Made by a program: the position numbers and the translations under genes. From Candidatus Aenigmatarchaeota archaeon (lineage in GTDB: Archaea; Aenigmatarchaeota; Aenigmatarchaeia; QMZP01), in NCBI GenBank assembly GCA_043824495.1, contig JBDRSV010000024.1:91056-155055 (forward strand): DNA of 64,000 nucleotides, in the 5' to 3' direction. Positions 29,331 through 45,038 of the stretch are shown here, piece after piece; the first letter of the stretch is position 1, and every line of letters begins with the position of its first letter. The notes beneath the pieces are model-generated. The model did not search any database, had not been told where the DNA came from, and saw only the letters and a program-made list of their open reading frames with translations.

Positions 29331-29380
29331 GGGGATCCCGATCAATCTGGTTGGGATCCCCTCAACCTGACAATAAACTG
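29331..29380 (+). terminator. hairpin GGGGATCC-N15-GGATCCCC followed by TTGACAAT -35 box (cassette copy 2)
   Basis: Perfect 8-bp stem right after stop 29316. The TGACAATAAAC repeat also occurs at 27343 and 30278. Confidence 0.5.
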
Positions 29381-29414
29381 TTGTTAAATGTTCCATTACA
29401 CCAAGGAGGGCGCA

Positions 29415-30233: not shown

Positions 30234-30241
30234 TTGTTACA

Positions 30242-30290
30242 GGGGATCCTGACCAATTCGGTTGGGATCCCTTCAACTTGACAATTAACG
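30242..30290 (+). terminator. hairpin GGGGATCC-N15-GGATCCC followed by TTGACAAT (cassette copy 3)
   Basis: About 80% identical to 29331..29380. Confidence 0.5.
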
Positions 30291-30333
30291 TAACATGTTA
30301 ACAATGAATACCAACAGAGAAGGAGAAAGTCAA

Positions 30334-31659
30334 ATGTGTAACATCATCATCCGTACCATCGTGGCACTGGCACTCATGGTTCTGATCGTGCCGGCCATCA
30401 CCAACATCGCAATTGCGGACGGAACGCCGTGTGGTCTCACCGTAGGTAATGGCAACGACATCGATCGCGACTTCGTTGCATTCCTCAACAAAGAAGGAAT
30501 CAGATGGTTAACAATCGAGGAATTCGTTGAGTGCTACTCCCAACTGATCGGTCCAGGTAGTACCATGTTGAGCACCACTCGGGGATATGGCTGGGGATAT
30601 ATTGACGTTCCTTTCAAGTTTGGCGATTCGGTCGCGTCTATAGTGAACATGGAGATCATGCCAGGCGTCCGGATCAATATGGCTTGGGATCAAGCGGTCA
30701 TCTTCTACAAATATGCGAATAATCATGGAATGCATATTCTGAAGAAGACGGAGAATGACCGTGAGGTTCCGGCCTGGAGCGGCTTGATTGATGAAGCTAC
30801 GGTGCGTCAACATGTCAACGGCTTCGAAGTGTCCGCGCAGATTCCGAGTGATGTTCTGGAATCGGATGTTGCGATTATCCGGATGCGAGATTTAAAGGAC
30901 GCCTACTTGGCCGAGAACACCGACGTTATCGAGTCTTACCTCATCGAGAAGTTTGACCTCGACGACGATTCCGAGCCGTATTCTGACAATCGGCCAAATA
31001 TATTTCATCGCAGTGGCGAAGTCTTACTGGACTCGGAGATGTTCTTCGTGTATGAAGGTCTGGAAATTCTCAATCTCATCATCAATGATCGGTGGATTGG
31101 TGTACGATTCCCCGGATCGACCTATATCCACTTCATCAACATCGGACCGAGAAAAGTCCACGACTTGAATGCCAACTTCGTCGAGACGAAAACTCCGAAC
31201 AACACCGGCGGTCAGATCAGTATCCCGCAGGATGTGATCGAAAAGATGACGTGGATCGATTCCGTCTATTCGGATAGGATGTCCCCGAATCCGATGTTAG
31301 GTTTCGGAAACGGTGAGTACCTGGCGAGCTCTGGGATCGTTTCGTTCGCGTGGGTTGCCTGGACCAACACCGATGGCAACCTCCAGTTCTATCTCAATGT
31401 TCTCCTTAACATTGATCATCAGGTGACGATCGAGACTGTGTCTCACTACGGTGGGCCTGATGTTTGGAGGGCGTGGAGTCCGAATCAGACCTGCACAGAG
31501 GTGGAGACTGGAAACGGCTGGTGTTATATTCACTGTTCCCAGTCGGAAAGTGGACCTCGAATCTGCGACTATAGACAAGCCTTGGACGATGCAGTCGCGG
31601 CGTTCAATGGCATCGATTTCTTCACGAACATGAAGGTGATCATGTACACGGTGAAGTAA
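30334..31659 (+). CDS. secreted hypothetical protein (paralog of 29415..30233)
   Basis: Signal peptide IVALALMVLIVPAITNIAIA. SD GAAGGAG. ATG 30334 preferred. Confidence 0.5.
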   Translation: MCNIIIRTIVALALMVLIVPAITNIAIADGTPCGLTVGNGNDIDRDFVAFLNKEGIRWLTIEEFVECYSQLIGPGSTMLSTTRGYGWGYIDVPFKFGDSVASIVNMEIMPGVRINMAWDQAVIFYKYANNHGMHILKKTENDREVPAWSGLIDEATVRQHVNGFEVSAQIPSDVLESDVAIIRMRDLKDAYLAENTDVIESYLIEKFDLDDDSEPYSDNRPNIFHRSGEVLLDSEMFFVYEGLEILNLIINDRWIGVRFPGSTYIHFINIGPRKVHDLNANFVETKTPNNTGGQISIPQDVIEKMTWIDSVYSDRMSPNPMLGFGNGEYLASSGIVSFAWVAWTNTDGNLQFYLNVLLNIDHQVTIETVSHYGGPDVWRAWSPNQTCTEVETGNGWCYIHCSQSESGPRICDYRQALDDAVAAFNGIDFFTNMKVIMYTVK

Positions 31660-31948
31660 AGCCGAACGCCACGAATTACTAATCCGCTCTTCTTCCCAAA
31701 GAAGTGTGGCTAGTGTGAAAGGAGTATGGGAAGGTTCCACAGTAGTAGCATCAACGGCAAAAAGTAAAAGACAAAAAAATGAAGGCCAAACCCGAGGAGG
31801 AACTCGAAGTGAAGACGAAACGAAGGTCATGCCAATATCCCATTTCGCCCATGATGGCGACTCATATTCTCATAGTCTGACCGGCCGCCGGCGACGCCAC
31901 GGGCCTCTTATATAGTTAGCGGGGCCCATCGCCAATGCAGTCAAAATC

Positions 31949-32030
31949 CCGGGTAGGCTTCAACCCCTACCCGGGGTTCCAAATGAGCTCATCTAGTTCA
32001 GATATTTTCTAGGTGGGCCCATTTGGAATT
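31949..32030 (+). promoter_or_regulatory. hairpin CCGGGTAGG...CCTACCCGG plus inverted repeat TTCCAAATGAGC-N28-GCCCATTTGGAA
   Basis: A second copy with the same architecture lies at 32580..32665. Confidence 0.45.
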
Positions 32031-32092
32031 GTAAATGATTGTTGACTGTTCAATGAGCGTTCCGAAAGGAACATTGCAAGGAGATTTTTATC

Positions 32093-32557
32093 ATGACACA
32101 GCAGATGACATCAGTACCAGATGGTTGGGGCGGAGCAGGTGGCGACAGTCTCGGCACAGATGCACTCGAGCTTCTGAAGAAAATGGGATTCGACAATGCA
32201 ATGGGACAAGCGTTGCTCGGCAGCTTTAATCCACAGGGTTTCGTGGATGCGCTTCTCACGTTCCGACCGTTCCCGGTTGGCGGAGTCTCTCCCGAAGCTC
32301 GGAACGAGAGCAGAGAAGCTCAGTGGATTTATCTCACATGGATCTTCACCAGTCGGCAGAGAGCCTCCTTTCCCGTCGAAGGGGTGAGTGGCCTTGCTGA
32401 CTTCGTGGATATTGTCCGGAAAGCACAGAGCGATGCGGACGCGAACGAACATGCAGTTCGAATCTTGTCCAGGTTTGGGTGTGTCGATCTCCTCGTTGGT
32501 GAAGGTCGGACCTTCTTGCACACGAAAGCCATCGATTTCGCTAATTCCCAAACGTAA
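32093..32557 (+). CDS. hypothetical protein
   Basis: 154 aa, SD AAGGAG, GC-rich. Confidence 0.45.
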   Translation: MTQQMTSVPDGWGGAGGDSLGTDALELLKKMGFDNAMGQALLGSFNPQGFVDALLTFRPFPVGGVSPEARNESREAQWIYLTWIFTSRQRASFPVEGVSGLADFVDIVRKAQSDADANEHAVRILSRFGCVDLLVGEGRTFLHTKAIDFANSQT

Positions 32558-32579
32558 GTCCGCGACATCACCAACCAAT

Positions 32580-32665
32580 CCCGGGAACAAGACAGTTCAA
32601 TCTGTTCCCGGGTTCCAAATGAGTTCATGTGGTTTGATTTCTTGACTAGGTGGGCTCATTTGGAA
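32580..32665 (+). promoter_or_regulatory. hairpin CCCGGGAACA...TGTTCCCGGG plus inverted repeat TTCCAAATGAGT-N29-GCTCATTTGGAA (copy 2)
   Basis: Immediately after stop 32557. Contains TTGACT. Similar to 31949..32030. Confidence 0.45.
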
Positions 32666-32681
32666 TTGAGTTGTAGTAGAA

Positions 32682-32757
32682 CCATAACCCATTCACGACC
32701 TTTTGTCGACCCTGTCTGATATCAGTTCAGGGAAGAATCTAAAGGAAGGAGAATTCA
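32682..32757 (+). promoter_or_regulatory. conserved leader/promoter region copy B
   Basis: CCATAACCCATTCACGACCTTTTGTCGACCCTGTCTG...AAAGGAAGGAGAATTCA-ATG matches 28160..28240. Confidence 0.5.
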
Positions 32758-34749
32758 ATGCATTCACTCCAAGAAGTAAAAGAACACATCAAGACAACGA
32801 TGTGCAAAGCGGTTCAAGTGAATCGCTGGATGATGTGGATCGCGCTCGTCGTCATATGTATTGTGGCGATTGAGTTGTTCGTTTGGTTGCCTTCACTGCC
32901 AGAAGAGGCGCAAGACGTCCTTTCCCCATTCATAGAAGGTGGAAACAGGAATGCAGGCACGTTATTACTCCACTTCTTCTGTTTCATGGGTGCATTGGTG
33001 TCTATCTTCTTCAAAATCTTCGGTCCGATCACAAGATCTTATGATAATACACTTTTCTGGGAACTCCATCTGGGTGGAACAAAAAGGATCGGATTCCGCC
33101 TGGGTGACTGGCCTACTGGTGTGTTCATTGAAGCGGCAGACGTTCTCAGTGATTTACCAGCGAATGTCAGGAAAAGAATTCCGTGCACCCAGTATGCTGT
33201 TTCTCGAATTAAAAGCGTAACGGAATTCGACGACAGCGGTAGAGCCATCGTCCCACGGGATGAGAGTGTGTCTTCTGTGAGATTCGCCACAGTGGATGAT
33301 GGTCGACCGGGAACGCTCGACTTGGATAGGGTGTTCTCCTGGGCGCATAAGTACATCCGAGGCTATTATATCTGCCTGGCCTTTACATGTCTGTTCCTGG
33401 CTTGGCCGGTGATAACCGGCTACTCGATCGCGAGCTTCATGCACGACCTCCCGGTCCAGATCCACGACATCGCTGTTGACCCATCTCAGAATTCGACGAA
33501 AGTAATCGTCAGTTCTGATCGCAATGTCCGGTATGACTCAAGAATCGAGGTTGCAGATGACTGTGTCTGCTCCCGATTCATTCTGAACATATACCCGGCA
33601 AAGTGTGATTTCCTGGAGGAGATCTTTGCCAGTGACTATGTAATGAGAGGGTATTATGGGGCTCGAACCAACACCGGGCAGCTCTCCGAAGCAACTGGAT
33701 GGAATGGTGTCAGGCAAATCAACATCAGACAAGTTGGTGACACCATCAAGATTGTACTCGGCCTGAAAGATATGGTTGAGTACGCAATGAGTCGCTCGTC
33801 AGAGCACGGCACAAAGGATCTGGTCGTTGGTCTGGACACGCCAGTCGAGTCCAAACAGACATCGGGCGAATATTGGACCGCGAACAAGTTCGCAGATCAG
33901 TACGAAGTTCCTGACAACAATGCCCGTCGCGAGTCATCGTGTGGTGAATGGAAGTCGTTCGTCAGATTTGTATCTGCGGATAGTAACAACGTATACTTCT
34001 CTGCCAGATACGGTGGAGTGTACAGAGTGGATATGAATGGATGGATTGACACGATCGTCCCAAACAACGAGGTTGATTACTACCACACGCCAGTGAGTAG
34101 CGGTAATAAACTCGCTGGCATCCATGATGGGAATGATCTCTGTATTGTGGATATGGATACCAGAAAGGTCAAGAACGTCACCCATGGACAAATATGGGAC
34201 GTCGATTGGGTCTCGGACACCGGACTCGTGTTCTGGAGAGATCTTGATGGTGTCTGTTACTACTCCCTCTCTGCGGACTCGTCTTGGTCTTTGAACAAAA
34301 AGGCCAAATTCCCATCTGTGTGTGGGGATAAGATATTCTACCTCACACACTTACGCACCCATCGGGATGAGTGGGATTCCACACTAATCTGGGAGATGAG
34401 CCTTGACGGGTCTTCCAGAACCGTAGCTAGGTTGAAGGGAGGCTACTCACACCTGAGTATGTCTTCGGACTGCTCAATTGCAGTTCTGAAAGAGCCGTAT
34501 AGTTCTGACCGCACGTGGGTCAATAGAATCAAAACATTCTCCTTCAACGACTGCATTATGACAACACTGACGGAGTGTGGTGAGTCTCCAAGGATCACTA
34601 CAGACAATCGAATTGTTTATGTCAAGTTGTATCCTGTGGAGGGGCGTGGGGATTTCAACTCGAACTCAGAAGTCCGGATCATGGATCTGGACGGCAGAAA
34701 CGACACCTTGATTGTCAACAGAGAGGAACTCCGGAAGTTTCCGATGTAA
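32758..34749 (+). CDS. large membrane-anchored protein with extracytoplasmic beta-rich domain (hypothetical)
   Basis: Two N-terminal TM helices, then about 560 aa rich in W/Y/D/G turns; possibly propeller-like. Confidence 0.5.
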   Translation: MHSLQEVKEHIKTTMCKAVQVNRWMMWIALVVICIVAIELFVWLPSLPEEAQDVLSPFIEGGNRNAGTLLLHFFCFMGALVSIFFKIFGPITRSYDNTLFWELHLGGTKRIGFRLGDWPTGVFIEAADVLSDLPANVRKRIPCTQYAVSRIKSVTEFDDSGRAIVPRDESVSSVRFATVDDGRPGTLDLDRVFSWAHKYIRGYYICLAFTCLFLAWPVITGYSIASFMHDLPVQIHDIAVDPSQNSTKVIVSSDRNVRYDSRIEVADDCVCSRFILNIYPAKCDFLEEIFASDYVMRGYYGARTNTGQLSEATGWNGVRQINIRQVGDTIKIVLGLKDMVEYAMSRSSEHGTKDLVVGLDTPVESKQTSGEYWTANKFADQYEVPDNNARRESSCGEWKSFVRFVSADSNNVYFSARYGGVYRVDMNGWIDTIVPNNEVDYYHTPVSSGNKLAGIHDGNDLCIVDMDTRKVKNVTHGQIWDVDWVSDTGLVFWRDLDGVCYYSLSADSSWSLNKKAKFPSVCGDKIFYLTHLRTHRDEWDSTLIWEMSLDGSSRTVARLKGGYSHLSMSSDCSIAVLKEPYSSDRTWVNRIKTFSFNDCIMTTLTECGESPRITTDNRIVYVKLYPVEGRGDFNSNSEVRIMDLDGRNDTLIVNREELRKFPM

Positions 34750-34830
34750 GCGTGTAGTTATCATTCACACCCCGCCTGGATTCAATTCCAGGCGGGGTTG
34801 ATCATGAAATAAAGAGAAGGGGAGTGTACC

Positions 34831-35835
34831 ATGATAAAAATGTTTGGTAAACTGCTCTGCGGAGTTGCCATGGTTGTAGGCGGGTTGATCGCAGTGCTAG
34901 CGACGATCACTTTCTTCGCAGTCATTGGGAACATGGTAATCGATACTTACAAAATTGGCATGCATTTCTCTCCGTTGTTACCGACAGCCTTCATCAGCCT
35001 TTGGGTCGCCGCCGTCATGCTTTGGATTACCACCCTCGGCGCGAAAGGCCTCGGATGGTCGGTATCATGCCATTTGAAATTCAACATCGGTTACGGTTCC
35101 ATGCTGCTGGGAATCGTCGGCGTAATTGTGATCCTGGGATACTACACATATCTCTTCACCTTTGCTGACATCCCAGGACAACTGGTTGTCCTCAGTATTG
35201 ACGGTATGGAGACGTTCAGTCGGGTGGAAGTTCGTCTCATGAAAATCATGGATTTGGTGCCTCTACTATTCGCATCCATTTGCACCGGATTCACCGGACT
35301 GGCTCTCTGGTGGGGACGAATACAATCAATCCGGTTTCCGTTCTCCCGTTGGTTCGGAATCGCTGTCGCGATGATTCTTGTTATTGTCATGGCAGTGCCT
35401 GTTCTTGGTCAGGCCGATTCCACAGGCTTCACTGAGGCCAAGACCCATCTTTGTGGGATGCAGATGAATTATGCTGAATATTTCGGTGAGTTGTTCGCGG
35501 CGCGTTTCGCATCCCGGGAACTTGATATCAATATCTTCGATGCCGATGAAGAGTGGATGTGGAGAATGGTTGATTCAACATTCTACCGAAGGGATACACT
35601 CTTTGCTGTCAGAGACGGGTTCTCGTCGGTATTTAATATGGCCGAAGAGAAGGCCGAGCTTGTGGCCGCGACTGATCTGGCGAGAATTGTCGGGAAAATC
35701 AGGGGAATCCCGGAAGGTGAACGCGTTCCTTTAAGGTATTGTTTCCGTGGGGGACAGTTCATCAAGAAAGATACAAACAGAGGTTACCATGCGGTTGTAG
35801 TGCAGATTCTTCCGCTGTCTGAGAATCTGGAGTGA
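34831..35835 (+). CDS. polytopic membrane protein with C-terminal soluble domain (hypothetical)
   Basis: About 6 TM helices in the first 200 aa. SD GGGGAG. Confidence 0.5.
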   Translation: MIKMFGKLLCGVAMVVGGLIAVLATITFFAVIGNMVIDTYKIGMHFSPLLPTAFISLWVAAVMLWITTLGAKGLGWSVSCHLKFNIGYGSMLLGIVGVIVILGYYTYLFTFADIPGQLVVLSIDGMETFSRVEVRLMKIMDLVPLLFASICTGFTGLALWWGRIQSIRFPFSRWFGIAVAMILVIVMAVPVLGQADSTGFTEAKTHLCGMQMNYAEYFGELFAARFASRELDINIFDADEEWMWRMVDSTFYRRDTLFAVRDGFSSVFNMAEEKAELVAATDLARIVGKIRGIPEGERVPLRYCFRGGQFIKKDTNRGYHAVVVQILPLSENLE

Positions 35836-35876
35836 AACCAACATTATCCTTTCAACATTTGATGGAGGACGGGTCA

Positions 35877-36222
35877 TGAAACTAGTCTTAAATCGTAGGC
35901 ATCTTATAGATCCCGCCAGTGTCATTGGGCCACGCGTGAACTGGTTGTTCTCCTGAATGGCCAAGAGGTTCAGGTGCGTCCTATCGACCAGACGATAATT
36001 CTGATCGGACGCGATCCGGAATGTGACGTAATACTCGATAATCGCGCCGTCGACTTCTTCCATGCTCACATTGATTTCGGCGAGAATTTTGTAGTAATTG
36101 ACAACGTGTCACTCAACGGCACGTTTGTCAACGGAGAAAAGGTCGAGAAAGCGGTTCTCCGTCCTGGTGATGTGATCACAATAGCCAGGTATGAGATTCA
36201 CATCCGGTCCCTCCGGAAGTAG
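35877..36222 (+). pseudogene. FHA-domain protein, apparently frameshifted (or non-ATG start at GTG 35974)
   Basis: FHA core LVVLLNGQEVQVRPIDQTIILIGRDPECDVIL...NGTFVNGEKV lies in a frame with no ATG. A GGAGG SD plus ATG 35877 lie in another frame that terminates after 26 codons. Confidence 0.4.
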
Positions 36223-36286
36223 ACGACGCGATGGTAGTCTTGTTCCAATTCCGTACAGGTGTTTACAAAATCTGTGCGGGATTTGT

Positions 36287-36390: not shown

Positions 36391-36609
36391 GTGAAAAAGG
36401 TTAAAAGTTGGAAATCTAAAGATAATAATATGATGATTACTCCAAGATTAGTGTTAATGTTCATTTTTGGACTTATTGCTATTTATGGTCTTTTTGCTGC
36501 TCTTAGTCCAGAAAGGTATATAATTCCTCTAGTTTCAGGTGAATTTGCACAAATTATTGGGTTTATTATATTTATCATAGCAGGTTATTTTTTTGTTAGG
36601 TTTAGATAA
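36391..36609 (+). CDS. small membrane protein
   Basis: GTG start with AAGGAGGTG SD. Two TM helices. Confidence 0.4.
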   Translation: MKKVKSWKSKDNNMMITPRLVLMFIFGLIAIYGLFAALSPERYIIPLVSGEFAQIIGFIIFIIAGYFFVRFR

Positions 36610-36874
36610 TATGGACAAAATACAACTTAAAAAGAATAAGATAGATCTGGAAGCTAGATATATAATGCAAGAAAGAAATGCTATTTTATTGGCCCTCCCT
36701 GCTTTACCATTAACTTCTTTTAACTTGGGTTTGTTTGTAGGTCAACTTGATCCATTAGTCTCTGCATTCATTGCTTTGGTTGTTTTTGAATATCTTTATT
36801 TTATTAAGCTTCATTTTGATCGAAAATTAAAGGATAAAATAAAAGAAATTGATGATCTGATGAGAATTACCTAA
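36593..36874 (+). CDS. small membrane protein
   Basis: Overlaps the previous gene. Two TM helices. Confidence 0.35.
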   Translation: MLGLDNMDKIQLKKNKIDLEARYIMQERNAILLALPALPLTSFNLGLFVGQLDPLVSAFIALVVFEYLYFIKLHFDRKLKDKIKEIDDLMRIT

Positions 36875-36935: not shown

Positions 36936-37589
36936 ATGACAAAACCAATCGCACTATCGGCAAGTAGCATAAGACTTTTCCTAGAGTGCCCTCGATGCTT
37001 CTGGCTGCATATAAACAAGAAGGTAAGAAGGCCTTCGGGAGCTTTCCCATCGTTGCCAGCGGGTATGGACAAGATACTCAAGATACACTTTGATGAGTAC
37101 AGGGAGAAAGGCAAGATACCAAAAGAGCTAGAAGGCAAATTCAGCGGCAAGCTTTTTGGTGATACAGAAATATTGGGTGTGTGGCGTAACAACAGAAAAG
37201 GGCTAAGACATACAGACAAAAAGAGTGGCATTATTCTCATGGGAGCGTTAGATGACCTCTTTGTCACCAATAATGGACAGTTTGCACCATTGGACTTCAA
37301 AACAAGAGGCTATCCCCTCAAGGAAGACACACATGAACACTATCAGCACCAGATGGACATTTACTCATATCTTCTAGAAAAGAACAACATGAAGACTGCA
37401 GGCTATGCAATACTCATATTCTACCATCCGAAACGTGTTACAAGCACATGCAATGTTGAGTTTAATGCAGACCCTTTGAAGGTGAAGACCAGCATAAAGG
37501 ACGGTGAGAAGATATTTTTGGATGCTGTAAAATGCCTTTCGGGGAAAGAGCCCAATCCTGGCAAGGACTGTGGGTTTTGTAGATGGTGA
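36936..37589 (+). CDS. Cas4-like PD-(D/E)XK nuclease with Cys cluster (solo; no CRISPR array or other cas genes in the window)
   Basis: N-terminal LECPRCFWL (the Cas4 CPRxFWL motif). LDFK motif. QhxxY motif (QMDIYSY). C-terminal C-x11-C-x2-C. Confidence 0.55.
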   Translation: MTKPIALSASSIRLFLECPRCFWLHINKKVRRPSGAFPSLPAGMDKILKIHFDEYREKGKIPKELEGKFSGKLFGDTEILGVWRNNRKGLRHTDKKSGIILMGALDDLFVTNNGQFAPLDFKTRGYPLKEDTHEHYQHQMDIYSYLLEKNNMKTAGYAILIFYHPKRVTSTCNVEFNADPLKVKTSIKDGEKIFLDAVKCLSGKEPNPGKDCGFCRW

Positions 37590-37696
37590 TTCAAATCTAT
37601 TTTCAGTGTCAAACAAACCTATTTAAATAAAACAGACCACTTTCTATTGGAACTAATTAAATATATACCAACTGAAACCAATAATTAATAGTTCAT

Positions 37697-38329
37697 ATGC
37701 TTATGGACGAACGAAAACCAGAAATAAAAATTGTAGATAGGTCATTCTTACTTTACCTTCTATCGAAGGCCCAAGAAGCTAAAGCAGAATTAGGTAGAAC
37801 CTTATTACAGAAATTTGTTTTCGCTACTGAGGTTACTACGAAAGGAAAGGGTGGTGGAGGGCTAAATTATTATATTTATAAATGGAAACATGGTCCATTT
37901 AGCAAAGAGCTTGCACAAGATAGAGAAGTTCTTCTAAAAAACAATTTAATAACAGATAGTAATGAACTTACAAAAGAAGGGCATAAAATATTATCATATA
38001 TTAATCCCATTGTTGATAAAGATTCGGAATCTAAAGCCGTAATAAGTGTAATAACTAAAACTCTTTCTGGGAGAAGCTTGTCTCATATATTAGAAATTAT
38101 TTATAAGTCCGATTTTGATCTCCCAAATGGGAAAAGAATGAAAATAAAGACAATACCAGAGGGGACTCCAATGATTTTCAGATCGGAAGAACGAGATGTT
38201 AAAAACAGATCTCTCTTCACAGAATCTACGATAGAAACACTGGCCATAATGATGAATAAGGAAAAACATTCTTCTCTTAAGAAAGCCATGTCAATGCCGA
38301 TGATAGGAGAATTCAAATATGATATATGA
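37697..38329 (+). CDS. Panacea-domain (DUF4065, SocA-like) putative antitoxin
   Basis: LQKFVFATEV...GLNYYIYKWKHGPFSKEL fits the DUF4065 pattern. Confidence 0.5.
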   Translation: MLMDERKPEIKIVDRSFLLYLLSKAQEAKAELGRTLLQKFVFATEVTTKGKGGGGLNYYIYKWKHGPFSKELAQDREVLLKNNLITDSNELTKEGHKILSYINPIVDKDSESKAVISVITKTLSGRSLSHILEIIYKSDFDLPNGKRMKIKTIPEGTPMIFRSEERDVKNRSLFTESTIETLAIMMNKEKHSSLKKAMSMPMIGEFKYDI

Positions 38330-38724
38330 TAAAAAAAAGATTTCTTGAAACTAGCGGATTTCGTGAATTCTTCCAAAGTTTGAGCGATTTCGACAAAAAA
38401 AATGTTAAAAAAATTATAGAAAAAATAAGAGAACGTGTGGAGTATAATATACTTAAACCAGATAGTTTTCTTCGCTATGAGTTTGCAGGCACGCGGAAAG
38501 AAAGAAGAGAAAGACTTAGAGTATTCTATCGCGTGTGTGAGGAATGCCGAAGACTAGGTCATGATAAAATCGAAGGCAGATGTCACGATTGCCCAAGAGA
38601 AGACGATATCATTTGTCTTATATGGGGAGACGATATTCGAGACGATGAAACATATAAAGATAAAACAATGCTTGACAGACCAGGAGCTAAAATAGATAAG
38701 AGGTCAAATGAATTCTGTGAATGA
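38326..38724 (+). CDS. HigB/Gp49-like (RelE/ParE superfamily) putative toxin with Zn-ribbon insertion
   Basis: FFQSLSDFDKKNVKKIIEKI...ILKPDSFLRYEFAGTRKE..RLRVFYRV pattern. CEEC...CHDC insert. ATGA overlap with the Panacea gene. Confidence 0.4.
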   Translation: MIKKRFLETSGFREFFQSLSDFDKKNVKKIIEKIRERVEYNILKPDSFLRYEFAGTRKERRERLRVFYRVCEECRRLGHDKIEGRCHDCPREDDIICLIWGDDIRDDETYKDKTMLDRPGAKIDKRSNEFCE

Positions 38725-38761
38725 ATTAATTTTTTATTTTACGGCGATTTTGGCCTAAAAC

Positions 38762-38995
38762 CTATCTATCAACAGTCTCTACCCACGGCGCTTTTCTCTC
38801 AGGCAGTTTACTTCCTTTGATCACTATCTTGAATTTTAGTGGATTAGTAATATGCTTTCTGAATTCGTCTTTCCTCATTTCTGTCAAGTGTCTGACTATC
38901 TCAACAACATTGAGTCTGTATTCTTCGCTGAATCCTTCTTTTGGTGGTTTAGGGTCCTTTATTCTAATGTCTTTTAGAATTATATCTACCATCAT
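38762..38995 (-). CDS. hypothetical protein
   Basis: 77 aa, same strand as the RM enzyme operon. Confidence 0.3.
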   Translation of the reverse strand: MMVDIILKDIRIKDPKPPKEGFSEEYRLNVVEIVRHLTEMRKDEFRKHITNPLKFKIVIKGSKLPERKAPWVETVDR

Positions 38996-39018
38996 TATAT
39001 TTGGAGCAAAGAAATAAA

Positions 39019-39324
39019 TTAGCTTTCAATTCGCGTGGGGAGCCCCGATTCTCTGAGGCGTTTTATACGTTCCTCATGAGTCATTTTACCTGTGCCTCTT
39101 TCTATAGAGTCCTTTATTTCTGTTTTAGATGCTTTGCATTCAGGACATTTGGTATGGACATCGAGCTTTTCTGGATGATATTTTGGTATCAATTTACTTC
39201 TTCCTGCAGCATGAGCTCTCCCTTCGCTATACCAATCAAGTGTTTTGGTAATATCAATATCCGCCTTTTTACAGAATGGGCACCTGATACTTTCTCTTGT
39301 AAATTCAGGTTTTGATCTTGTCAT
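39019..39324 (-). CDS. Zn-ribbon protein (CPFC...CPEC)
   Basis: Two CxxC pairs. Immediately downstream of the RM enzyme gene. Confidence 0.4.
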   Translation of the reverse strand: MTRSKPEFTRESIRCPFCKKADIDITKTLDWYSEGRAHAAGRSKLIPKYHPEKLDVHTKCPECKASKTEIKDSIERGTGKMTHEERIKRLRESGLPTRIES

Positions 39325-39329
39325 ATATC

Positions 39330-42056
39330 TTATATTTTCTCTATTATTTTCTTCTCTTCTTCTGTTATCCCGTATATTCTATATATATATGAATCTATTT
39401 CTTTGTCAATTCTTTGTATCTCATTTTCTATATGTACTCTTCTATCCGTTTTTTTGTCACCTATCTCATTTAAACTGTTATTCATAGAAATTATTTTATC
39501 AACTAAGTTAATGACATCTTTCTCTGTTTCTTTACTAACTAGTTTAATAGGAAATTTCTTCGTATTAGCAATTAGTATTTTTTGGAATAGCCTTTTTGAA
39601 GGATCTAAATATTTCTCTTTATGGTAAAAAGTCATTAGCTTTGAGTTTAAAATTGCTAGAATATATTTAATTTGATCAGAACTACCGTTCTTGGGTATTA
39701 TATTAAATCCTATTTGTGTGTTATATAACTCCTTTTCGGTATATCCAGCGTATATTTTTGGAGGTTTACCACTGATAATCTGTCTCACGACTATACGAGG
39801 TTTTAAGAAAAATCTCTGTTCTCTGGGAGCGCCTAGCCATTTCCCATAACTAATATATTCTGTTTGGTTCCATTTTATACCATATCTTATAATGCCTGCT
39901 CCAGATAAGAGGGGTTTGAAAGTTTCATTCTTTTTTGTTTCTGAATGAAAAACTTTATTTTTTATTTGATCTTGTGTATGACCTTTGTATTTATCATAAG
40001 GTGTTAATCCTAGCGAGAAATCGCACAAATCTATCAAAGGTTTTGTACCTTCTTCAATCTTTTTAATTATTTTACTTATAGTAGGATTTCGAGATATATT
40101 GATAATGTTATCACGACTCCAGTCTAGTTGATTAAATGTTGTGTATGTATTGCAATTTTCTTTGTCTATGAAACTTATCTTTTCTTCACTAGGATAAATC
40201 AAAAGTTCACATTTAGTACTTTTTGTTGGCTTCTTTTTTTGGTATATGAGTATTATGGTCTCTACTTTAGCCTTCTCAAAAACATTATCAGGAAGTCTCA
40301 CAATCTTTTTAAGAGTCGCTTCGTTTAATAGTAATTTTCTTATTTTTGAATATGATTGATTATATAGGATTGAATTCGGTATAATAAAACCGAAGTATCC
40401 TCCATTCTTTAGTAGACGGAAAGATTTTTCAACAAAAACTGAGTACAGATTCATTCTATTTTCTACTGTTTCATATGCCGAAAATAAATATTTAACAATT
40501 AGAGGATCTAGCTGTTTTATATCTACATACGGTGGATTACCAATTATAATATCAAAGGAACCTCCTTCAAAATCGTCTATCCATTTAAAAGAGTCTAATC
40601 CAGCAACCTCTTCAGCATCTATTAAACTGTTTCCATGACATATATGAGTATCAATCTCTGTGGGTAGTTTTCTTCCCTTTTCTGCAGCCTTCAGTAATAA
40701 ATTCAGTTTTGTTATTTCTACTGCTTTATTGTCTAAGTCCACACCGTAAAAGTTATTCTTAAGCATGTGTGTTTTAACTGAATAAATTCCCTGATAATCT
40801 AATCTCATTTGTTTTGCTTCTGGTTTTTGCATCATACTATTCAACAAATGATCAAAAGACTTTATTAAGAATGAACCAGAACCACACGCAGGGTCTAATA
40901 TTTTAATTTCTAATGGCTTCGTTTTTTTATCTGTTATTAACTCTCCTAAAGTGTTTCTAATAATATAATCTACTACATAAGTCGGTGTGTAATAAATGCC
41001 TTGTTCCTTTCTATGTAGTCTCGAATCTCTTAATTGAGCTTTCCCTGATTTCTTTTGATCAAGAATTAGACCCAAGTATTGCTCATAAACTTGACCTAGA
41101 ACATCAGCATCTATCCAGTCAAAATTATAAATGTATGTTTTGTCTTTCGATTCGTATAAATAATAAATTAAATTTTTAATTATAGATCCGTTGATATTGA
41201 TTGTATCACAATCATTATCTCTCGATATAGCAAACAAACCACTGTTATATACATCATCATATGTTTTGAATATTTCCTTCAGTTTTGTGTAAGCTTTACT
41301 ATCATGTAGGTGTTTTATATCGCTAAGTATAACACCATCAGGATTTATGTTTATGTCTTCACAGCGTCGAATAAATATAAGTCTGTCTAGAATTCTCTGG
41401 ACTATATCATCCTTCTCATCAATAGAATACTTTTTTGCATAGGTTTTCTCAATGTCGCTAGCAATTAAACTTCTTATAAGCATCAAATCATTAAGCAGGG
41501 TTTTATCGATAGAAACCCTTTTCTTCAATCTACCTTCATCTTCAGCTTTTTTAAGGATAATATTTTCTTCAAAACTGTTTTTTGATAAGAAAAGCAAATC
41601 TTCAAAGCTGTTGATATAATCTTCTGGGGTATTGAAAACTCGGAATTTATTTCTTATAGAATTTTCTTCCTCTACACAAAATATTCTTGTTTCTTCAAAG
41701 TTGGTTGATACTGCAAAAGGTACTCTCTTTGATAGTGCATATGATATTACTTGTTTATCCGCTTCTCTATCTAAAGATACACCAACCTTTTTGACTTCAA
41801 GAAAGAAAACAGTTCTGCCATTAATCTTAAAGGCGTAATCTGCGCGTCCTCTTTGACTTCCTCTATGTGCTTGAGACTGTTTATCAAAATCATTTCGCTC
41901 CCAACCAAGCAACTGAAAAAGAGGTTCAATTAATCTAGTTTCTGTATCAGCTTCTGACAGTTTTTTATATGATTCTTTGTCAGCGTTGAATTCGTTAATT
42001 AATTTTTGAATTTCCTCCTTAATGATCTCTTTATCCATATAATTAGAATGAAACAA
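39330..42056 (-). CDS. Type IIL/IIG restriction-modification enzyme (MmeI-like fusion of PD-ExK nuclease, gamma-class N6-adenine MTase and TRD)
   Basis: N-terminal RADYAF...FFLEVKK (D..ExK). ILDPACGSGSFL (motif I). FDIIIGNPPYV (motif IV). Confidence 0.65.
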   Translation of the reverse strand: MFHSNYMDKEIIKEEIQKLINEFNADKESYKKLSEADTETRLIEPLFQLLGWERNDFDKQSQAHRGSQRGRADYAFKINGRTVFFLEVKKVGVSLDREADKQVISYALSKRVPFAVSTNFEETRIFCVEEENSIRNKFRVFNTPEDYINSFEDLLFLSKNSFEENIILKKAEDEGRLKKRVSIDKTLLNDLMLIRSLIASDIEKTYAKKYSIDEKDDIVQRILDRLIFIRRCEDININPDGVILSDIKHLHDSKAYTKLKEIFKTYDDVYNSGLFAISRDNDCDTININGSIIKNLIYYLYESKDKTYIYNFDWIDADVLGQVYEQYLGLILDQKKSGKAQLRDSRLHRKEQGIYYTPTYVVDYIIRNTLGELITDKKTKPLEIKILDPACGSGSFLIKSFDHLLNSMMQKPEAKQMRLDYQGIYSVKTHMLKNNFYGVDLDNKAVEITKLNLLLKAAEKGRKLPTEIDTHICHGNSLIDAEEVAGLDSFKWIDDFEGGSFDIIIGNPPYVDIKQLDPLIVKYLFSAYETVENRMNLYSVFVEKSFRLLKNGGYFGFIIPNSILYNQSYSKIRKLLLNEATLKKIVRLPDNVFEKAKVETIILIYQKKKPTKSTKCELLIYPSEEKISFIDKENCNTYTTFNQLDWSRDNIINISRNPTISKIIKKIEEGTKPLIDLCDFSLGLTPYDKYKGHTQDQIKNKVFHSETKKNETFKPLLSGAGIIRYGIKWNQTEYISYGKWLGAPREQRFFLKPRIVVRQIISGKPPKIYAGYTEKELYNTQIGFNIIPKNGSSDQIKYILAILNSKLMTFYHKEKYLDPSKRLFQKILIANTKKFPIKLVSKETEKDVINLVDKIISMNNSLNEIGDKKTDRRVHIENEIQRIDKEIDSYIYRIYGITEEEKKIIEKI

Positions 42057-42193
42057 ATTCTAATAAGCTTTATCTTCACCAATAATTTCTGTTTCTCCTT
42101 TTCTGCCGCTGTACAAGTTCTGGTTCAGTGCGGTTCAACTTAGTTCAACTGAACTGTAGAAAACTTTATAAGCCCTATAAACAAGGATAATGT

Positions 42194-43213
42194 ATGCAAA
42201 AAAAATATTCAGCAGATTGGCTTGAAAAAGCTGAGATTGTGAAAAGAAAAATAAAGGACCTACAACTGGATCCAGAAAATGTTAGGTTTAGCCATATACC
42301 ACAAATTCATAAGAGCACAAAAAACATAGAAGAAATAATGAAGGAGGATGACGGCATCTTTGACCTTTATGATCAAATACTTTCTTCAAATGGTATTATA
42401 GAGCCTATTGTAATTGATTCAAATAATATGGTCATCGAGGGTAATCGAAGATTAACTTGTTTGAGGCTCTTGGATGACCAGGCAAAAAAAGGAGAATTAG
42501 ATGATGAAGGCATATCTAGAACCCAGTTTGAAGAGGTGCAATGCAGACTCTTGCCTAAAATAGATGACGAAACAAGGGATCTTTTCCTTGCAACAATACA
42601 TGTGAAAGGCAAGAAGCCTTGGAAAAGATTTAATAAAGCCAAGCATATATACAGGCTTAACAGAATGCACAAAATAAGTTATGACGAAATAGCAAGACTT
42701 CTTGGGATGGGAAAAGCCACCGTCCAGAGAAATGTTTCTGTTTATGTGGAGGTCAGTAAATATCACACAAGATTCTCTGACGATAAAGAATGGTTTAAGA
42801 AATTCATGCTCTATGAGCAGTTTTTTATGAGAAAAGATTTAAGAGATTTTAGAGAAGATCAAGAAAACATAAACATTTTTGCTAAATGGGTTTATTCTGG
42901 AAAATTTCAAAATCATAAAGATATTAGAAGATTATATGAAGTCCTAAATGATGAGGACTCAAAAAATGAATTTGAAAAGACAAATATGGAGAACGCCATA
43001 AAAACATTGGAAACCAAGAATCCTGAGCTCGTAGACGCTGACTTTAAGAAAATAAACGACACTATAAGTGTTTTACAAGAAATTTCAAGAGCTAAGCTCA
43101 ATGATATTGTCTCAAACCCAGAGAAAATAAAACTATTAAATTCGCTTGAGCATGAACTGAAAAACTTACTGATTGATATAGAAAGCAGAAAAGACAGCTT
43201 AAGGAAAAAATAA
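42194..43213 (+). CDS. ParB/Srx-like nuclease-domain protein
   Basis: IEPIVIDSNNMVIEGNRRLTCLRLL is a ParB N-terminal domain motif. Divergent from the RM gene. Confidence 0.5.
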   Translation: MQKKYSADWLEKAEIVKRKIKDLQLDPENVRFSHIPQIHKSTKNIEEIMKEDDGIFDLYDQILSSNGIIEPIVIDSNNMVIEGNRRLTCLRLLDDQAKKGELDDEGISRTQFEEVQCRLLPKIDDETRDLFLATIHVKGKKPWKRFNKAKHIYRLNRMHKISYDEIARLLGMGKATVQRNVSVYVEVSKYHTRFSDDKEWFKKFMLYEQFFMRKDLRDFREDQENINIFAKWVYSGKFQNHKDIRRLYEVLNDEDSKNEFEKTNMENAIKTLETKNPELVDADFKKINDTISVLQEISRAKLNDIVSNPEKIKLLNSLEHELKNLLIDIESRKDSLRKK

Positions 43214-43310
43214 TGACCAGGGTGGTGGAAGGGGCGACTGACGGGTGGCCCTCCATAACTTCCTTTGTCAGGAAGCGAACACGGTAAAACGTGCCCTGGT
43301 CTTCATAATC
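43214..43310 (+). ncRNA. GC-rich structured element (candidate small RNA or terminator complex)
   Basis: GACCAGGGT...GCCCTGGTC terminal inverted repeat encloses hairpins GGCCCTCC and CTTCCT-ttgtc-AGGAAG. About 60% GC in an AT-rich spacer. Confidence 0.3.
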
Positions 43311-43371
43311 TTAATGTTTGATTAATATTTATATGTTATTTATATATTCTTTTTCTATCTTATTAACTAAT

Positions 43372-43590
43372 CTATAGTTTCCAATAAGTAACTCCACCTC
43401 TGGTTTTACCTCTAGATAAGTACCCGCGTTTAAATAATCTCTTAAGTGTTTTATCTGCACTATGCCAACTCATTTTCGTTCTTTTCGCTATCTTATTTGT
43501 TGTTATGGGTCTCTGGGTTCTTCTAAGAAGATTAAGTATAGCAGATTCCTTTGGACTGAATCTTGAATGTCCGTTTACCATTTTAATCAC
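43372..43590 (-). CDS. winged-helix DNA-binding protein
   Basis: ILNLLRRTQRPITTNKIAKRTKMSWHSADKTLKRLFKRGYLSRGK. Confidence 0.45.
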   Translation of the reverse strand: MIKMVNGHSRFSPKESAILNLLRRTQRPITTNKIAKRTKMSWHSADKTLKRLFKRGYLSRGKTRGGVTYWKL

Positions 43591-43849
43591 GCCTTATCAA
43601 CTTGAAGCTGACTTTAATATCTTTCTTGTCCTTAAGTGGAATTGGAGTTTCTACAGTATACTCTAAAAGATCTTCTTCAGAGAATTTTATTGCATCCGAT
43701 ATCTCTCTTGGAAACCTCACGAAAAACAAGTCTCGTGAGTCCTTGCTTATTTTTGCTGATTTTGTTATAATCTCTTTATCATATGGGAGCTCTTTTTCCA
43801 GTGATCTCTTTTTTTCAGGTTTTTCCCATTGTATGTTTTTTCTTCCCAT
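43583..43849 (-). CDS. hypothetical protein
   Basis: 88 aa, 8-nt overlap with the HTH gene. Confidence 0.35.
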   Translation of the reverse strand: MGRKNIQWEKPEKKRSLEKELPYDKEIITKSAKISKDSRDLFFVRFPREISDAIKFSEEDLLEYTVETPIPLKDKKDIKVSFKLIRRD

Positions 43850-44027: not shown

Positions 44028-45038
44028 ATGCTTATGAAAACGAAACAACTTACTTTAGATCGAGACTGGAGCCAATATAACTTGGCCCAAACACAGGAGA
44101 AACTTCTATTCATGAGAATACTGAGTGATGCCGTTAATTCCATGAATATAGAATATACATACAAAGGCAACGGAAGACCAAGCATAGGCATAGAGGACAT
44201 GATAAAAGTCCTCGTGATAAAGGTTTTCAACGGCTTCTCGCAGAGGAGGACAATACCAGATTTGTATATGGCTAAAGGTTTAGGCTACATACCTGAAGTC
44301 CCACACTTCAATTCCATAAGCAACTACTTCAACAGCACTGAATTGACTTATTATCTTGAGCAGCTCTACAGGATATTGGCTATGCCATTCATTCCTATAG
44401 AACAGTACTTTGCTATCGATTCTACTGGTTTTGGTAAATACAATACCAATTGGACTGCCAGCAAATATAAAAACGCAAGCATGAGAAGCTTCAACAAGCT
44501 GCATATAATATGCGGAGTGCGGACAAACATAATTGTGATAGCTAAAGTGACAGATGCACACCAACACGATTCTCTTCAGTTTCCTAAGATGCTTAAGGAG
44601 ACATGCAAAATATTCACAGTAAAAGAGATCTCTGCAGACAAAGGATATCTAGCACTCTATAATGTGAATGCAGCTAAAGAATTAGGCGTAGTACCCTACA
44701 TAATGCCCAAGAAGAACACAAAGTTATATTCCAAAAAGAGATGGGTGGATGGAGAGGCATGGGATAGAATGGTACTCATGTGGAGACATAAAGAGGAAGA
44801 ATTCAGAAAACACTACCATCTGAGATCGAATGTTGAGAGCAGCTTCTCAATGATGAAGAGGAAGTTTCTTCCTTTCATAAGGAGTAAGAACCCTATTGCA
44901 CAGAAGAATGAAATTCTGGCTAAGGTTGCTTGTCACAATATATCCGTTCTTGTCCACTCAATCTTTGAATTGGGTTTAAACATAGATTTTAAAAATATAG
45001 ATTCAACAGATGAAAGGAGGGAATATTATGACGCCTGA
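44028..45038 (+). mobile_element. IS4/IS5-superfamily DDE transposase
   Basis: AIDSTGF and ISADKGYLA (second D) with VESSFSMMKRKF (E) form the DDE triad. Upstream hairpin GAGACTGGCG...CGCCAGTCTC at 44000. Confidence 0.6.

Follow-up and report, generated by a model that had tools for sequence, protein, structure and literature searches.

A ParB-like gene and the restriction-modification (RM) or methyltransferase gene adjoining it have about an even chance of being the sole real functional coupling in a 7-kb stretch (positions 36936-43849) of a Candidatus Aenigmatarchaeota (DPANN) contig, whose host is a tiny uncultured archaeon. With confidence and doubt in balance, I propose that the ParB-like protein controls mobile RM cassettes in the manner of KorB, gated by an NTP. 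The stretch, part of the 64,000-nt window of DNA analysed here, belongs to a DPANN chromosome and forms an accessory island, a mosaic of defence and mobile genes whose units are mostly mutually independent (Table 1). The units appear to be a solo RecB/Cas4-family nuclease, a Panacea pair, a type IIG RM operon, the ParB/KorB-like protein, and an IS5-like DDE transposase with lineage-specific small genes. All the ORFs of the initial annotation were present at their positions. The island had been called AT-rich, but its GC content of 0.30-0.38 is the genome baseline (about 33%, as in the housekeeping genes at 45-56 kb), and thus its AT-richness is no signal; rather, the blocks of about 0.50 GC are the anomaly. 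The absence of a CRISPR array and of other cas genes, noted for this stretch, holds more widely: CRISPR-like arrays are absent across the whole 64 kb, and cas genes are absent among the called genes within 10 kb.

Table 1. Features of the island and its flank (positions in the window)
Position	Strand	Feature	Remark
36936..37589	+	Solo RecB/Cas4-family PD-(D/E)XK nuclease, 217 aa	CxxC pairs N- and C-terminal
37697..38329	+	Panacea (PanA)-type antitoxin candidate, 210 aa	Remote homologs match PF13274
38326..38724	+	Panacea partner, candidate toxin, 132 aa	CxxC..CxxC insert; ATGA overlap
38762..38995	-	77-aa ORF	Last gene of the IIG operon; the Logan record lists it as a called gene
39019..39324	-	Four-Cys Zn-ribbon protein, 101 aa	5 bp downstream of the IIG gene
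39330..42056	-	Type IIG single-chain RM enzyme	908 aa from TTG; 902 aa from ATG at 42038
42122..42155	.	GTTCA/TGAAC half-site cluster, putative operator	In the gap separating the divergent IIG and ParB-like genes
42159..42175	+	BRE/TATA-like element (GAAAACTTTATAAGCC)	Some 23 nt upstream of the ATG of the ParB-like gene
42194..43213	+	ParB/Noc/KorB-like protein, 339 aa	N-terminal ParB/Srx NTPase fold, central HTH, C-terminal helical domain
43215..43301	+	GC-rich 87-nt tRNA-like cloverleaf	Starts 2 nt after the ParB-like stop codon
43372..43590	-	Winged-helix (wHTH) DNA-binding protein, 72 aa	wHTH families
43583..43849	-	88-aa ORF	8-nt overlap with the wHTH gene
44028..45038	+	IS5-like DDE transposase, 336 aa	DDE_Tnp_1 1.2e-17

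The predicted model of the ParB-like protein matches the structures of ParB, Noc, KorB, and pNOB8-ParB in both the NTPase fold and the HTH, in agreement with its first label. An EGNRR box (GxRR) is invariant in the N-terminal fold. In the GERR motif, asparagine invariably takes the place of the glutamate, and box III does not resemble the ParB one; an NTP may therefore be bound or hydrolysed differently, or not at all. KorB (RK2), VirB (Shigella), and BisD (ICE) are known from the literature as CTP-dependent transcription regulators of the ParB family. The window protein differs from them in the asparagine of box II, in an unrelated box III, in an extra 140-aa helical C-terminal domain, and in its archaeal host; its partners are RM and methyltransferase genes, and its use of an NTP is presumed by analogy. 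Archaeal ParB-HTH proteins are reported to be scattered and seldom accompanied by ParA, and a role in segregation is thought unlikely.

The half-site cluster upstream of the ParB-like gene includes a 22-bp palindrome, GTTCA-N12-TGAAC (42133-42154). In 15 of 21 loci, versus 0.1 expected, a strict palindrome, GTTYA-N12-TRAAC, abuts the TATA box of the ParB-like gene, no more than 130 nt ahead of its ATG, and 20 of the 21 have it when one mismatch is allowed (background 0.005 per 130 bp). The adjacent BRE/TATA-like sequence is probably an archaeal promoter element, and its AAA(C)TTTA(A/T)A columns are invariant in an 11-locus alignment (A6). In the same alignment, the palindrome keeps a fixed register with this element, though the ParB-like proteins are only 42-73% identical. 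No second copy of the palindrome was found at the IIG promoter, nor before the downstream PD-Lambda-5_A or methyltransferase genes. The conserved promoter palindrome suggests autoregulation at most.

Is the neighbourhood of the ParB-like gene conserved? A check of this kind had been suggested in the initial annotation, and it was found that a DNA methyltransferase gene, of varying class, lies within two genes of the ParB-like gene in 16 of 18 distinct DPANN loci. A methyltransferase motif occurs in 19 of the 63 neighbours within two genes versus 7 of the 243 remaining genes of those loci (Fisher p=1.7e-9), with genes in the fetched loci called by a crude longest-ORF method and with the 18-21 loci related to one another and thus not independent events. 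A family scan of 61 of the 63 neighbours (18 loci) gave 19 DNA methyltransferases in four classes: D12 (ten), N6_N4 (four), C5 (three), and Eco57I (two). Wherever a locus was read together with its annotation, the ParB-like gene has a methyltransferase or RM gene beside it. Among the closest relatives, which show the pattern again, L157 has a C5 methyltransferase, L158 has a homologous type IIG gene whose N-terminus is divergent to the ParB-like gene in the same layout as in the window, and L159 has an REase-like ORF. In L011, a homolog of the type IIG enzyme (E 3e-140, 36% identity) is encoded on the same strand as the ParB-like gene, with an N6_N4 methyltransferase gene between them.

This adjacency to four methyltransferase classes may also be read as that of an activator or DNA-loading partner, which would help the neighbouring methyltransferase on double-stranded DNA just as phage ParB homologs help thymine dioxygenases. 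The methyltransferase gene lies within 61 bp of the ParB-like gene in L018-L020 and overlaps it in L019, fusions of a ParB fold with an N6_N4 methyltransferase are frequent in phages (phrog_498; 2025 survey), and 5mYOX176 is reported to need a ParB homolog on dsDNA. In both settings, a ParB-fold module accompanies a DNA-modifying enzyme. In the window, however, the ParB-like gene is separate from the enzyme and its product has an HTH, while the 5mYOX-associated ParBs are described as having no obvious DNA-binding domain. Moreover, one conserved family would have to serve the structurally unrelated D12, C5, N6_N4, and type IIG methyltransferases; the immediate neighbour is a REase-like ORF in L159 (labelled by eye only) and a Cas4-like gene in L021; and a site-specific palindrome at its own promoter would be superfluous for an activator. 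I consider this role quite improbable.

The N-terminal domain of the ParB-like protein matches PD-Lambda-5_A (2.6e-8) and PDC-M38A (1.1e-19). PD-lambda-5, a defence system that has been validated, is described as RM+Abi in compacted form (Vassallo et al. 2022). The bacterial relative PDC-M38A is a ParB-N/AbiL fusion, joining a ParB-like domain to an AbiL-type ATPase, with methyltransferases on both flanks. A ParB/Srx-type effector or sensor role has been proposed for both, and ties of ParB-superfamily domains to RM and Abi systems have long been known from the literature. The kind of locus suggested as possibly undescribed in the initial annotation is not wholly so: ParB-fold proteins tied to RM, PD-lambda-5, and PDC-M38 are already in the literature and in PADLOC. 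The window protein itself might then be an effector or sensor of RM-coupled abortive infection and not a regulator, its ParB/Srx domain being an NTPase or nuclease module that senses foreign DNA or the state of methylation. Like PD-lambda-5 and PDC-M38, it has an N-terminal ParB/Srx-type domain and is embedded with DNA methyltransferases. However, it matches just about 80-200 N-terminal residues of their models and has the HTH and helical domain where those have C-terminal parts of their own. PD-Lambda-5_A is missing from the window, in which the ParB-like gene is paired with a type IIG enzyme. In five loci, a full PD-Lambda-5_A gene lies between the ParB-like gene and a D12 methyltransferase gene (E 2.5e-11 in L017 to 1e-116 in L004). 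Since the two coexist, the ParB-like protein would be an additional component, distinct from the effector. The palindrome at its own promoter also fits a site-specific DNA binder. I consider an effector or sensor role unlikely.

Downstream of the ParB-like gene, the tRNA-like cloverleaf has a minimum free energy of -44.2 kcal/mol (z -4.7), and its homolog in L002 folds alike, with compensatory changes. Neither ARAGORN nor Rfam called it. A tRNA or tRNA-like sequence also follows the ParB-like stop codon in L158, L159, and L011, and such sequences abut the gene in L004 and L012 as well. The transposase is IS5-like, in line with its first label: it matches DDE_Tnp_1, and NCBIfam IS5_2 scores 108 bits, under its cutoff of 140. 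Its homologs adjoin the ParB-like gene in L011, L018-L021, and L023. A DDE transposase whose divergence parallels that of the ParB-like protein lies beside the ParB-like gene in seven loci. The wHTH gene between them was also rightly named; its matches, to many wHTH families, range from 1e-5 to 1e-3 and none of them reaches its cutoff, and NCBIfam gives Lrs14 (8.8e-6). It has no counterpart in the related loci, and the 88-aa ORF has neither a family match nor a homolog there.

These elements raise the reading that no functional coupling exists: the ParB-like gene would serve a mobile element inserting by tRNA genes, either in its maintenance or partition or as an accessory to its transposition, and the RM, Cas4-like, and transposase genes would gather in the same integration hotspot. 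The patchy distribution of the ParB-like family over archaea and bacteria and the generally variable neighbours of the Cas4-like gene, with many RM and mobile genes, are consistent with it. On the other hand, the methyltransferases are concentrated within two positions of the ParB-like gene and not spread over the 20-kb loci; no ParA, integrase, or replication gene was found among the called genes near the ParB-like gene; no terminal inverted repeats were found around the transposase gene or the module; and viral contigs held only three relatives. I regard a mere hotspot as rather improbable.

The RM partner in the window is an intact type IIG enzyme, nearer to Eco57I than to MmeI judging from its sequence. 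Pfam matches are Eco57I (7.8e-38), N6_Mtase (1.4e-33), TaqI_C (1.9e-17), HSDR_N (9.5e-8), and MmeI_Mtase (5.4e-13), and PADLOC gives REase_MTase_IIG (1.2e-93). The translation has a D..EVK nuclease motif, LDPACGSGSF, and NPPY. Like the Eco57I/MmeI-type IIG (IIL) enzymes, it carries on one polypeptide its nuclease (PD-(D/E)XK, N-terminal), its methyltransferase (gamma-class N6-adenine, NPPY), and its target-recognition domain (TaqI_C-type). Of the earlier label "MmeI-like type IIL RM", the RM enzyme stands, as type IIG, while "MmeI-like" is loose: MmeI_Mtase is the sole MmeI-named family matched, at 49 bits versus 131 for Eco57I. The next gene encodes CPFC and CPEC, the two CxxC pairs of the Zn-ribbon first noted, with weak matches all below cutoffs (PaaD and NrdR about 4e-4; Lar 0.011). 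It has no counterpart in the related loci, and the 77-aa ORF has no family match and no homolog there.

The 210-aa protein had been given a Panacea label. It has no direct match to PF13274 even at E<=10, but the label holds transitively, since 43 of 83 aligned remote homologs (from 218 found) match PF13274 SocA_Panacea; PADLOC gives PDC-M19A (3.5e-6). The ATGA overlap was confirmed. For the 132-aa partner, the HigB/Gp49 assignment was not confirmed, as no family matched and the single-sequence model was unusable (pLDDT 57). The pair is kept in L073 with 49% and 44% identity, where no other genes of the island occur. It is a candidate conserved two-gene toxin-antitoxin-like module with a PanA (Panacea)-type antitoxin and a small Zn-ribbon-bearing partner. 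As with PanA-PanT (Kurata et al. 2022, PMC8832971), half of the sampled family members match PF13274, and translation of the gene is coupled with that of a small partner, in a pair conserved in a second genome. Unlike PanA-PanT, the Panacea protein is below Pfam detection, the host is an archaeon, and the partner has a four-Cys insert and no recognisable toxin domain.

The nuclease is Cas4-like, as first suggested (Pfam PDDEXK_1 4.6e-8; PADLOC Cas4 7.6e-9; phrog_31195 1.7e-44), with D..D-x-K, QxxxY, and Cys conserved (alignment A4). A bona fide Cas4 was rejected (TIGR00372 25.5 bits versus a cutoff of 65). In 8 of 18 loci, a homolog lies within about 7 kb of the ParB-like gene. The Cas4-like family greatly outnumbers the ParB-like family, and just 1 of 31 long metagenome loci has a ParB-like gene near the Cas4-like gene. 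Of the composite locus proposed earlier, the combination singled out there holds, as a recurring association of RM, divergent ParB-like, and solo Cas4-like genes. The five modules are not one system, because the Panacea pair recurs alone, the small genes lack counterparts, and the Cas4-like family mostly occurs without the ParB-like gene. I read the toxin-antitoxin pair and the small genes as independent neighbours of the ParB-like/RM coupling.

As a KorB-like controller, the ParB-like protein would bind GTTCA-N12-TGAAC through its HTH, at a site with its own TATA box on one side and the divergent IIG promoter on the other. Its ParB-type NTP-binding domain would be the switch, as in KorB, VirB, and BisD, for its own transcription and that of the adjoining restriction and modification genes. 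C (controller) proteins are DNA-binding proteins encoded beside RM genes in mobile cassettes, with a palindromic operator directly upstream of their own gene; they have an Xre-type HTH and about 80-100 residues, lack an NTPase domain, and belong to one RM system each. The ParB-like gene likewise lies beside RM genes in horizontally mobile cassettes, with a putative palindromic operator directly upstream. In contrast, its product has 339 residues and a ParB fold, with partners from four methyltransferase classes. The partner class differs from locus to locus, while classical C proteins co-evolve with one RM system, which speaks against a controller. If the controller reading is correct, the ParB-like protein would do for a mobile RM cassette newly arrived in a cell what the small C proteins do for RM systems in bacteria.

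The initial annotation proposed that the island at 36936-43849, with five candidate modules, could be an undescribed composite defence locus. All of its ORFs are present in their annotated positions, and the two small minus-strand genes do encode a wHTH protein and a hypothetical protein, followed by a DDE_Tnp_1 transposase gene. It was also confirmed that a CRISPR array is absent from the 64 kb and that, up to 10 kb away, none of the called genes is a cas gene. However, the five modules do not form a single system; the type IIG enzyme, the Panacea pair, the IS element, and the solo Cas4-like nuclease are ordinary defence-island content. In other genomes, the adjacency of the ParB-like gene and a methyltransferase gene was found to recur, while the Panacea pair recurs in unrelated surroundings.

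A DNA methyltransferase gene or an RM operon adjoins the ParB-like gene in every annotated context (see the table). A scan of genome collections revealed further ParB-like loci in Pace-, Woese-, Micr-, and Nanoarchaeota as well as distant bacterial relatives. At 18 distinct DPANN loci, the scanned neighbours within two genes of the ParB-like gene (61/63) include 19 DNA methyltransferases of four classes and six DDE transposases. A methyltransferase motif lies near the ParB-like gene in 16 of the 18 loci, and such motifs were found in 19 of 63 near neighbours versus 7 of 243 far genes of the same loci (p=1.7e-9). For the three nearest relatives, which come from short contigs, the adjoining genes are a C5 methyltransferase gene, a homologous type IIG gene that is again divergent to the ParB-like gene, and an ORF labelled as REase-like by eye only. 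The genes of about 440 aa match PD-Lambda-5_A with E-values from 2.5e-11 (L017) to 1e-116 (L004), and full-length PD-Lambda-5_A proteins are present in L004, L012, L013, and L016 and, more weakly, in L017. PD-Lambda-5_A is part of a validated defence system described as compacted RM+Abi. A bacterial relative of the ParB-like protein is a PDC-M38A ParB-N/AbiL fusion with one methyltransferase on either side. The reading of the ParB-like protein as an effector or sensor in RM+Abi systems remains an alternative. PD-lambda-5 consists of a full-length PD-Lambda-5_A and a methyltransferase, whereas the ParB-like protein of the window matches PD-Lambda-5_A over residues 18-96 only (2.6e-8) and a full-length PD-Lambda-5_A was not found in the window.

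Features of the window and of related loci fetched for comparison (L numbers)
Feature	Sequence	Position	Strand	Remarks
GC-rich blocks (about 50%)	window	1000-3000, 15000-23000, 27000-36230, 57000-59000		33% GC genome
27-nt motif TTTATATTGTCTAWTTAAAGGGATATA	window	3004, 15241, 17221, 17660, 20175, 36282, 56967		seven copies
ORF with sorting-domain-like tail	window	17755-19629	-	
Small predicted membrane protein genes	window	36391-36874	+	72 aa and 93 aa
Cas4-like nuclease gene	window	36936-37589	+	
Panacea pair	window	37697-38329, 38326-38724	+	210 aa and 132 aa
Four-Cys protein gene	window	39019-39324	-	
Type IIG gene	window	39330-42056	-	908 aa; divergent to ParB-like gene
Palindrome	window	42133-42154		extra half-sites at 42122 and 42142
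ParB-like gene	window	42194-43213	+	339 aa
tRNA-like cloverleaf	window	43215-43301	+	87 nt
Small genes	window	43372-43590, 43583-43849	-	
Transposase gene	window	44028-45038	+	
Inositol-1-phosphate synthase gene	window	47035-49560	-	split by an intein
tRNA-like cloverleaf	L002	9115-9190		
Hairpin CATTAAGGGATTGCTTG-N7-CAAGCAAGTTAATCCCTTAATG	L004	9034-9080		same place in L007, L010, L012, L013, L014, L015, L017
Genes adjoining ParB-like gene	L007, L009, L010			D12 methyltransferase
Genes adjoining ParB-like gene	L004, L012			gene of about 440 aa, D12 methyltransferase
Genes adjoining ParB-like gene	L011			N6_N4 methyltransferase, type IIG enzyme, transposase
Six-gene operon	L040	9977-17086		example from L031-L066

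The distant bacterial relatives (L031-L066), mostly from sponge-symbiont and Nitrospirales MAGs, have a conserved six-gene operon. It encodes a ParB-like protein, a protein of about 149 aa with a weak AHJR-like match, an SNF2 helicase (ZorD/DpdE-like), a second ParB-like protein, a protein of about 550 aa with a weak radical-SAM match, and a HATPase_c_3 protein of about 500 aa. A PADLOC search of this operon gave nothing except the helicase and a weak PDC-M38A match of the first ParB-like gene.

The ParB-like family comprises 39 members, uniformly 331-348 aa in length except for one truncated (287 aa) and one distant (329 aa) sequence; a protein 100% identical to that of the window is annotated as hypothetical in a Candidatus Aenigmatarchaeota MAG. 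The EGNRR and IHVKGKKxW motifs are invariant, and the family has an HTH. Compared with the GERRxR box II and ENLQR box III nucleotide-binding motifs of ParB/KorB clamps, EGNRR keeps the G and both R residues, with E replaced by N, and the box III region reads IHVKGKKxW. The family profile found nothing significant among PDB sequences, and therefore only a fold search worked. In Foldseek, the AlphaFold model (pLDDT 89.2), which has a ParB/Srx N-terminal fold followed by the HTH, matched Noc, CTP-bound ParB, KorB, and the ParB-N domain of archaeal pNOB8. Thus, the protein is of the ParB/KorB type and combines an NTPase fold and an HTH with an additional C-terminal domain that is helical. An hhalign comparison of the family alignment with an approximate Spo0J query was colinear and weak (E 0.02), a lead only. 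A viral origin of the gene was dropped, since only three weak relatives were found on viral contigs. Partition ParBs have a ParA partner, whereas no ParA-type family was found among the called neighbours of the ParB-like gene in the loci read with annotation. In a 2025 survey, archaeal ParB-HTH proteins were scattered, lacked ParA partners, and were probably not involved in segregation. Links of the ParB superfamily to RM systems have long been known. Therefore, the association of the ParB-like gene with RM genes is not wholly new in kind.

It was revealed that a GTTYA-N12-TRAAC palindrome lies directly 5′ of the ParB-like gene, abutting the BRE/TATA-like GAAACCTTTAAAAAC located about 25 nt 5′ of the ATG. 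The palindrome is in register across 11 aligned loci. Upstream of the gene, GTTYA-N10-14-TRAAC occurs strictly in 15 of 21 loci, where 0.1 was expected (background of 0.005 per 130 bp); if one mismatch is allowed, 20 of 21 loci have it. In the window, it is situated between the divergent type IIG and ParB-like genes, and a second copy downstream of the ParB-like gene is absent from all loci but L011. The palindrome is the strongest evidence that the ParB-like protein may be a site-specific DNA binder at the promoter. ParB/KorB clamps have a cognate palindromic site near their gene, and the ParB-like gene has a putative one upstream. The controller (C) proteins of RM systems share the palindromic operator (putative here) 5′ of their own gene and the position beside RM genes, but they are small Xre-type HTH proteins, whereas the ParB-like protein has 339 aa and a ParB fold. 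In the best-supported reading, the ParB-like protein would be a KorB/VirB/BisD-like NTP-gated regulator of its own gene and the neighbouring RM genes, a functional analogue of C proteins. The reading as an activator of the neighbouring methyltransferase, with the ParB-dependent 5mYOX as a comparison case, remains; the methyltransferase neighbours speak for it, while such a role would not require the palindrome at the gene's own promoter.

The transposase in the window matches DDE_Tnp_1 above the Pfam cutoff and IS5_2 of NCBIfam below the cutoff (108 bits, cutoff 140). The window has no second copy of it, and no convincing terminal inverted repeats were found around the transposase genes. The ParB-linked transposases of the window, L011, L018-L021, and L023 diverge in step with the ParB-like proteins (41-57% versus 41-58% identity), with the exception of one pair (71% versus 56%). 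This parallel divergence and the lack of terminal repeats suggest long co-residence of the transposase and not a recent insertion. Rather than being an active IS, the transposase may have resided there for long or have become a domesticated partner. A hotspot or mobile-element maintenance role of the ParB-like gene also remains as an explanation; the linked transposases speak for it, and the concentration of methyltransferases within two genes of the ParB-like gene speaks against it.

I found a GC-rich, tRNA-like cloverleaf 2 nt past the stop codon of the ParB-like gene in the window (MFE -44.2 kcal/mol, z -4.7). Its middle-arm loop is UUUGUCA, that is, U33 and UGU. Rfam and ARAGORN called nothing in the window, the cloverleaf included. 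The cloverleaf is kept in L002 with compensatory changes, and a tRNA or tRNA-like sequence occurs at the same place past the stop codon in other loci. A joint alignment showed that the four downstream tRNA-like elements do not make up one family, since homology is limited to the copies of the window and L002. The window cloverleaf could represent a tRNA that is non-canonical or degenerate, the remnant of an att site, or a signal for processing. The Pace/Woese loci have, instead of the tRNA-like element, a hairpin of about 45 nt about 20 nt past the stop codon. Its conservation greatly exceeds that of the coding sequence, and compensatory changes occur in L010 and L014. The hairpin may act as an attenuator or a terminator, or it may represent a small RNA.

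A wider proposal is that DPANN archaea, and bacteria in the form of fusions, have recruited a ParB-CTPase-fold DNA clamp as a generic, swappable module for the control or loading of RM cassettes. The clamp would nucleate at the conserved palindrome next to the cassette, gate restriction versus modification, and move with the DDE transposase and the tRNA-like element as a mobile unit. I consider this rather unlikely; if true, it would add to RM control a new class with a mechanism unrelated to that of C proteins.

The label Cas4-like stands as a description of the solo nuclease, which matches PDDEXK_1 (4.6e-8), the PADLOC Cas4 models, and phrog_31195 (1.7e-44), but it falls below the curated Cas4 cutoff (TIGR00372, 25.5 bits, cutoff 65). 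In an alignment of Cas4-like nucleases, D..D-x-K, QxxxY, and the C-terminal CxxC are invariant, and the N-terminal CxxC is present in seven of eight sequences. Thus, the motifs and the Cys cluster are shared with CRISPR-associated Cas4, whereas the curated score and the cas/CRISPR linkage are not. In 75 metagenome loci, cas families are absent from the top matches among its neighbours, which vary between loci and abound in RM and mobile genes. In 8 of 18 loci, the distance between the Cas4-like gene and the ParB-like gene is no more than about 7 kb. The Cas4-like family is by far the larger of the two (at least 536 metagenome relatives), and the ParB-like gene was found in only one of 31 long Cas4-like loci, which ruled out the Cas4-like gene as its obligatory partner. 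The link is one-sided.

The 908-aa protein, annotated as an MmeI-like type IIL enzyme, is an intact type IIG enzyme nearer to Eco57I than to MmeI. Its translation has D..EVK nuclease, LDPACGSGSF, and NPPY motifs, and HSDR_N, N6_Mtase/Eco57I, and the TaqI_C recognition domain are found in one chain. MmeI_Mtase (49 bits) is the sole MmeI family among its seven Pfam matches, from which the MmeI-specific N-terminal, helical, TRD, and C-terminal domains are absent. The next gene encodes a four-Cys Zn-ribbon protein, and all of its matches are sub-threshold.

The Panacea label holds for the 210-aa protein only by way of its relatives. The protein itself has no PF13274 (SocA_Panacea) match even at E<=10, and the direct test was replaced by a transitive one. 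In an exhaustive search with HMMER, 218 homologs of about the same length were retrieved, and 43 of 83 aligned homologs match PF13274 (best 1.5e-10); therefore, it is probably a divergent member of the superfamily. A word-index search had found two proteins, one of them 100% identical and from the same MAG, and for the 132-aa protein only an identical one. The two genes overlap by ATGA. Since the pair also occurs in an archaeal contig (L073, 49% and 44% identity) between Cdc6/PolB genes and unrelated genes, it is a self-contained two-gene module. It is consistent with PanA-PanT pairs (PMC8832971). The 132-aa protein, whose single known homolog is in L073, has no match in Pfam, NCBIfam, PADLOC, or PHROG, and its single-sequence AlphaFold model (pLDDT 57) is too low for a structure search. 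Its HigB/Gp49 label is therefore tentative; by eye, its RLRVFYRV...IICLIWGD pattern resembles RelE/ParE, a lead only.

The island had been described as AT-rich. Its GC content (0.30-0.38) is that of the housekeeping genes (0.31-0.37), and therefore the low GC is native to this genome. What is unusual in the window is the blocks of about 0.50 GC at 1-3, 15-23, 27-36.2, and 57-59 kb, and the island begins at the end of one of them. The same order of GC-rich block, island, and housekeeping genes was found in an independent Logan assembly, where the latter are those for inositol-1-phosphate synthase with an intein, CDP-alcohol phosphatidyltransferase, L7Ae, and S28e. In the window, the intein has a LAGLIDADG domain (precomputed Pfam). 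A megablast search of 36-46 kb against plasmids and phages gave no match. The long ORFs of the GC-rich blocks are without any Pfam family, several copies of the 27-nt motif lie 60-90 nt past the 3′ end of a GC-rich gene, and the tail of one ORF resembles, by eye, a bacterial T9SS/Por C-terminal sorting domain. These blocks may be foreign, possibly bacterial, cassettes sharing an end signal. Between the motif copy at 36282 and the Cas4-like gene, there are two genes for small predicted membrane proteins, for which family searches found no family; the Shine-Dalgarno-like GGAGGTGA precedes the first.

Orphan ParB-fold proteins are increasingly recognised as NTP-gated switches beyond chromosome segregation. 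Archaeal ParB-HTH proteins are not known to have an assigned function. The ParB-like family provides a concrete and testable case, with a defined protein, a 22-bp site at its own promoter, and a defined class of neighbours, which are methyltransferases and RM enzymes, among them the validated PD-lambda-5. Tiny DPANN genomes depend on RM-type defences. If the ParB-like protein controls or assists RM, it would represent a new regulatory logic for RM biology and would explain how mobile RM cassettes establish in DPANN archaea.
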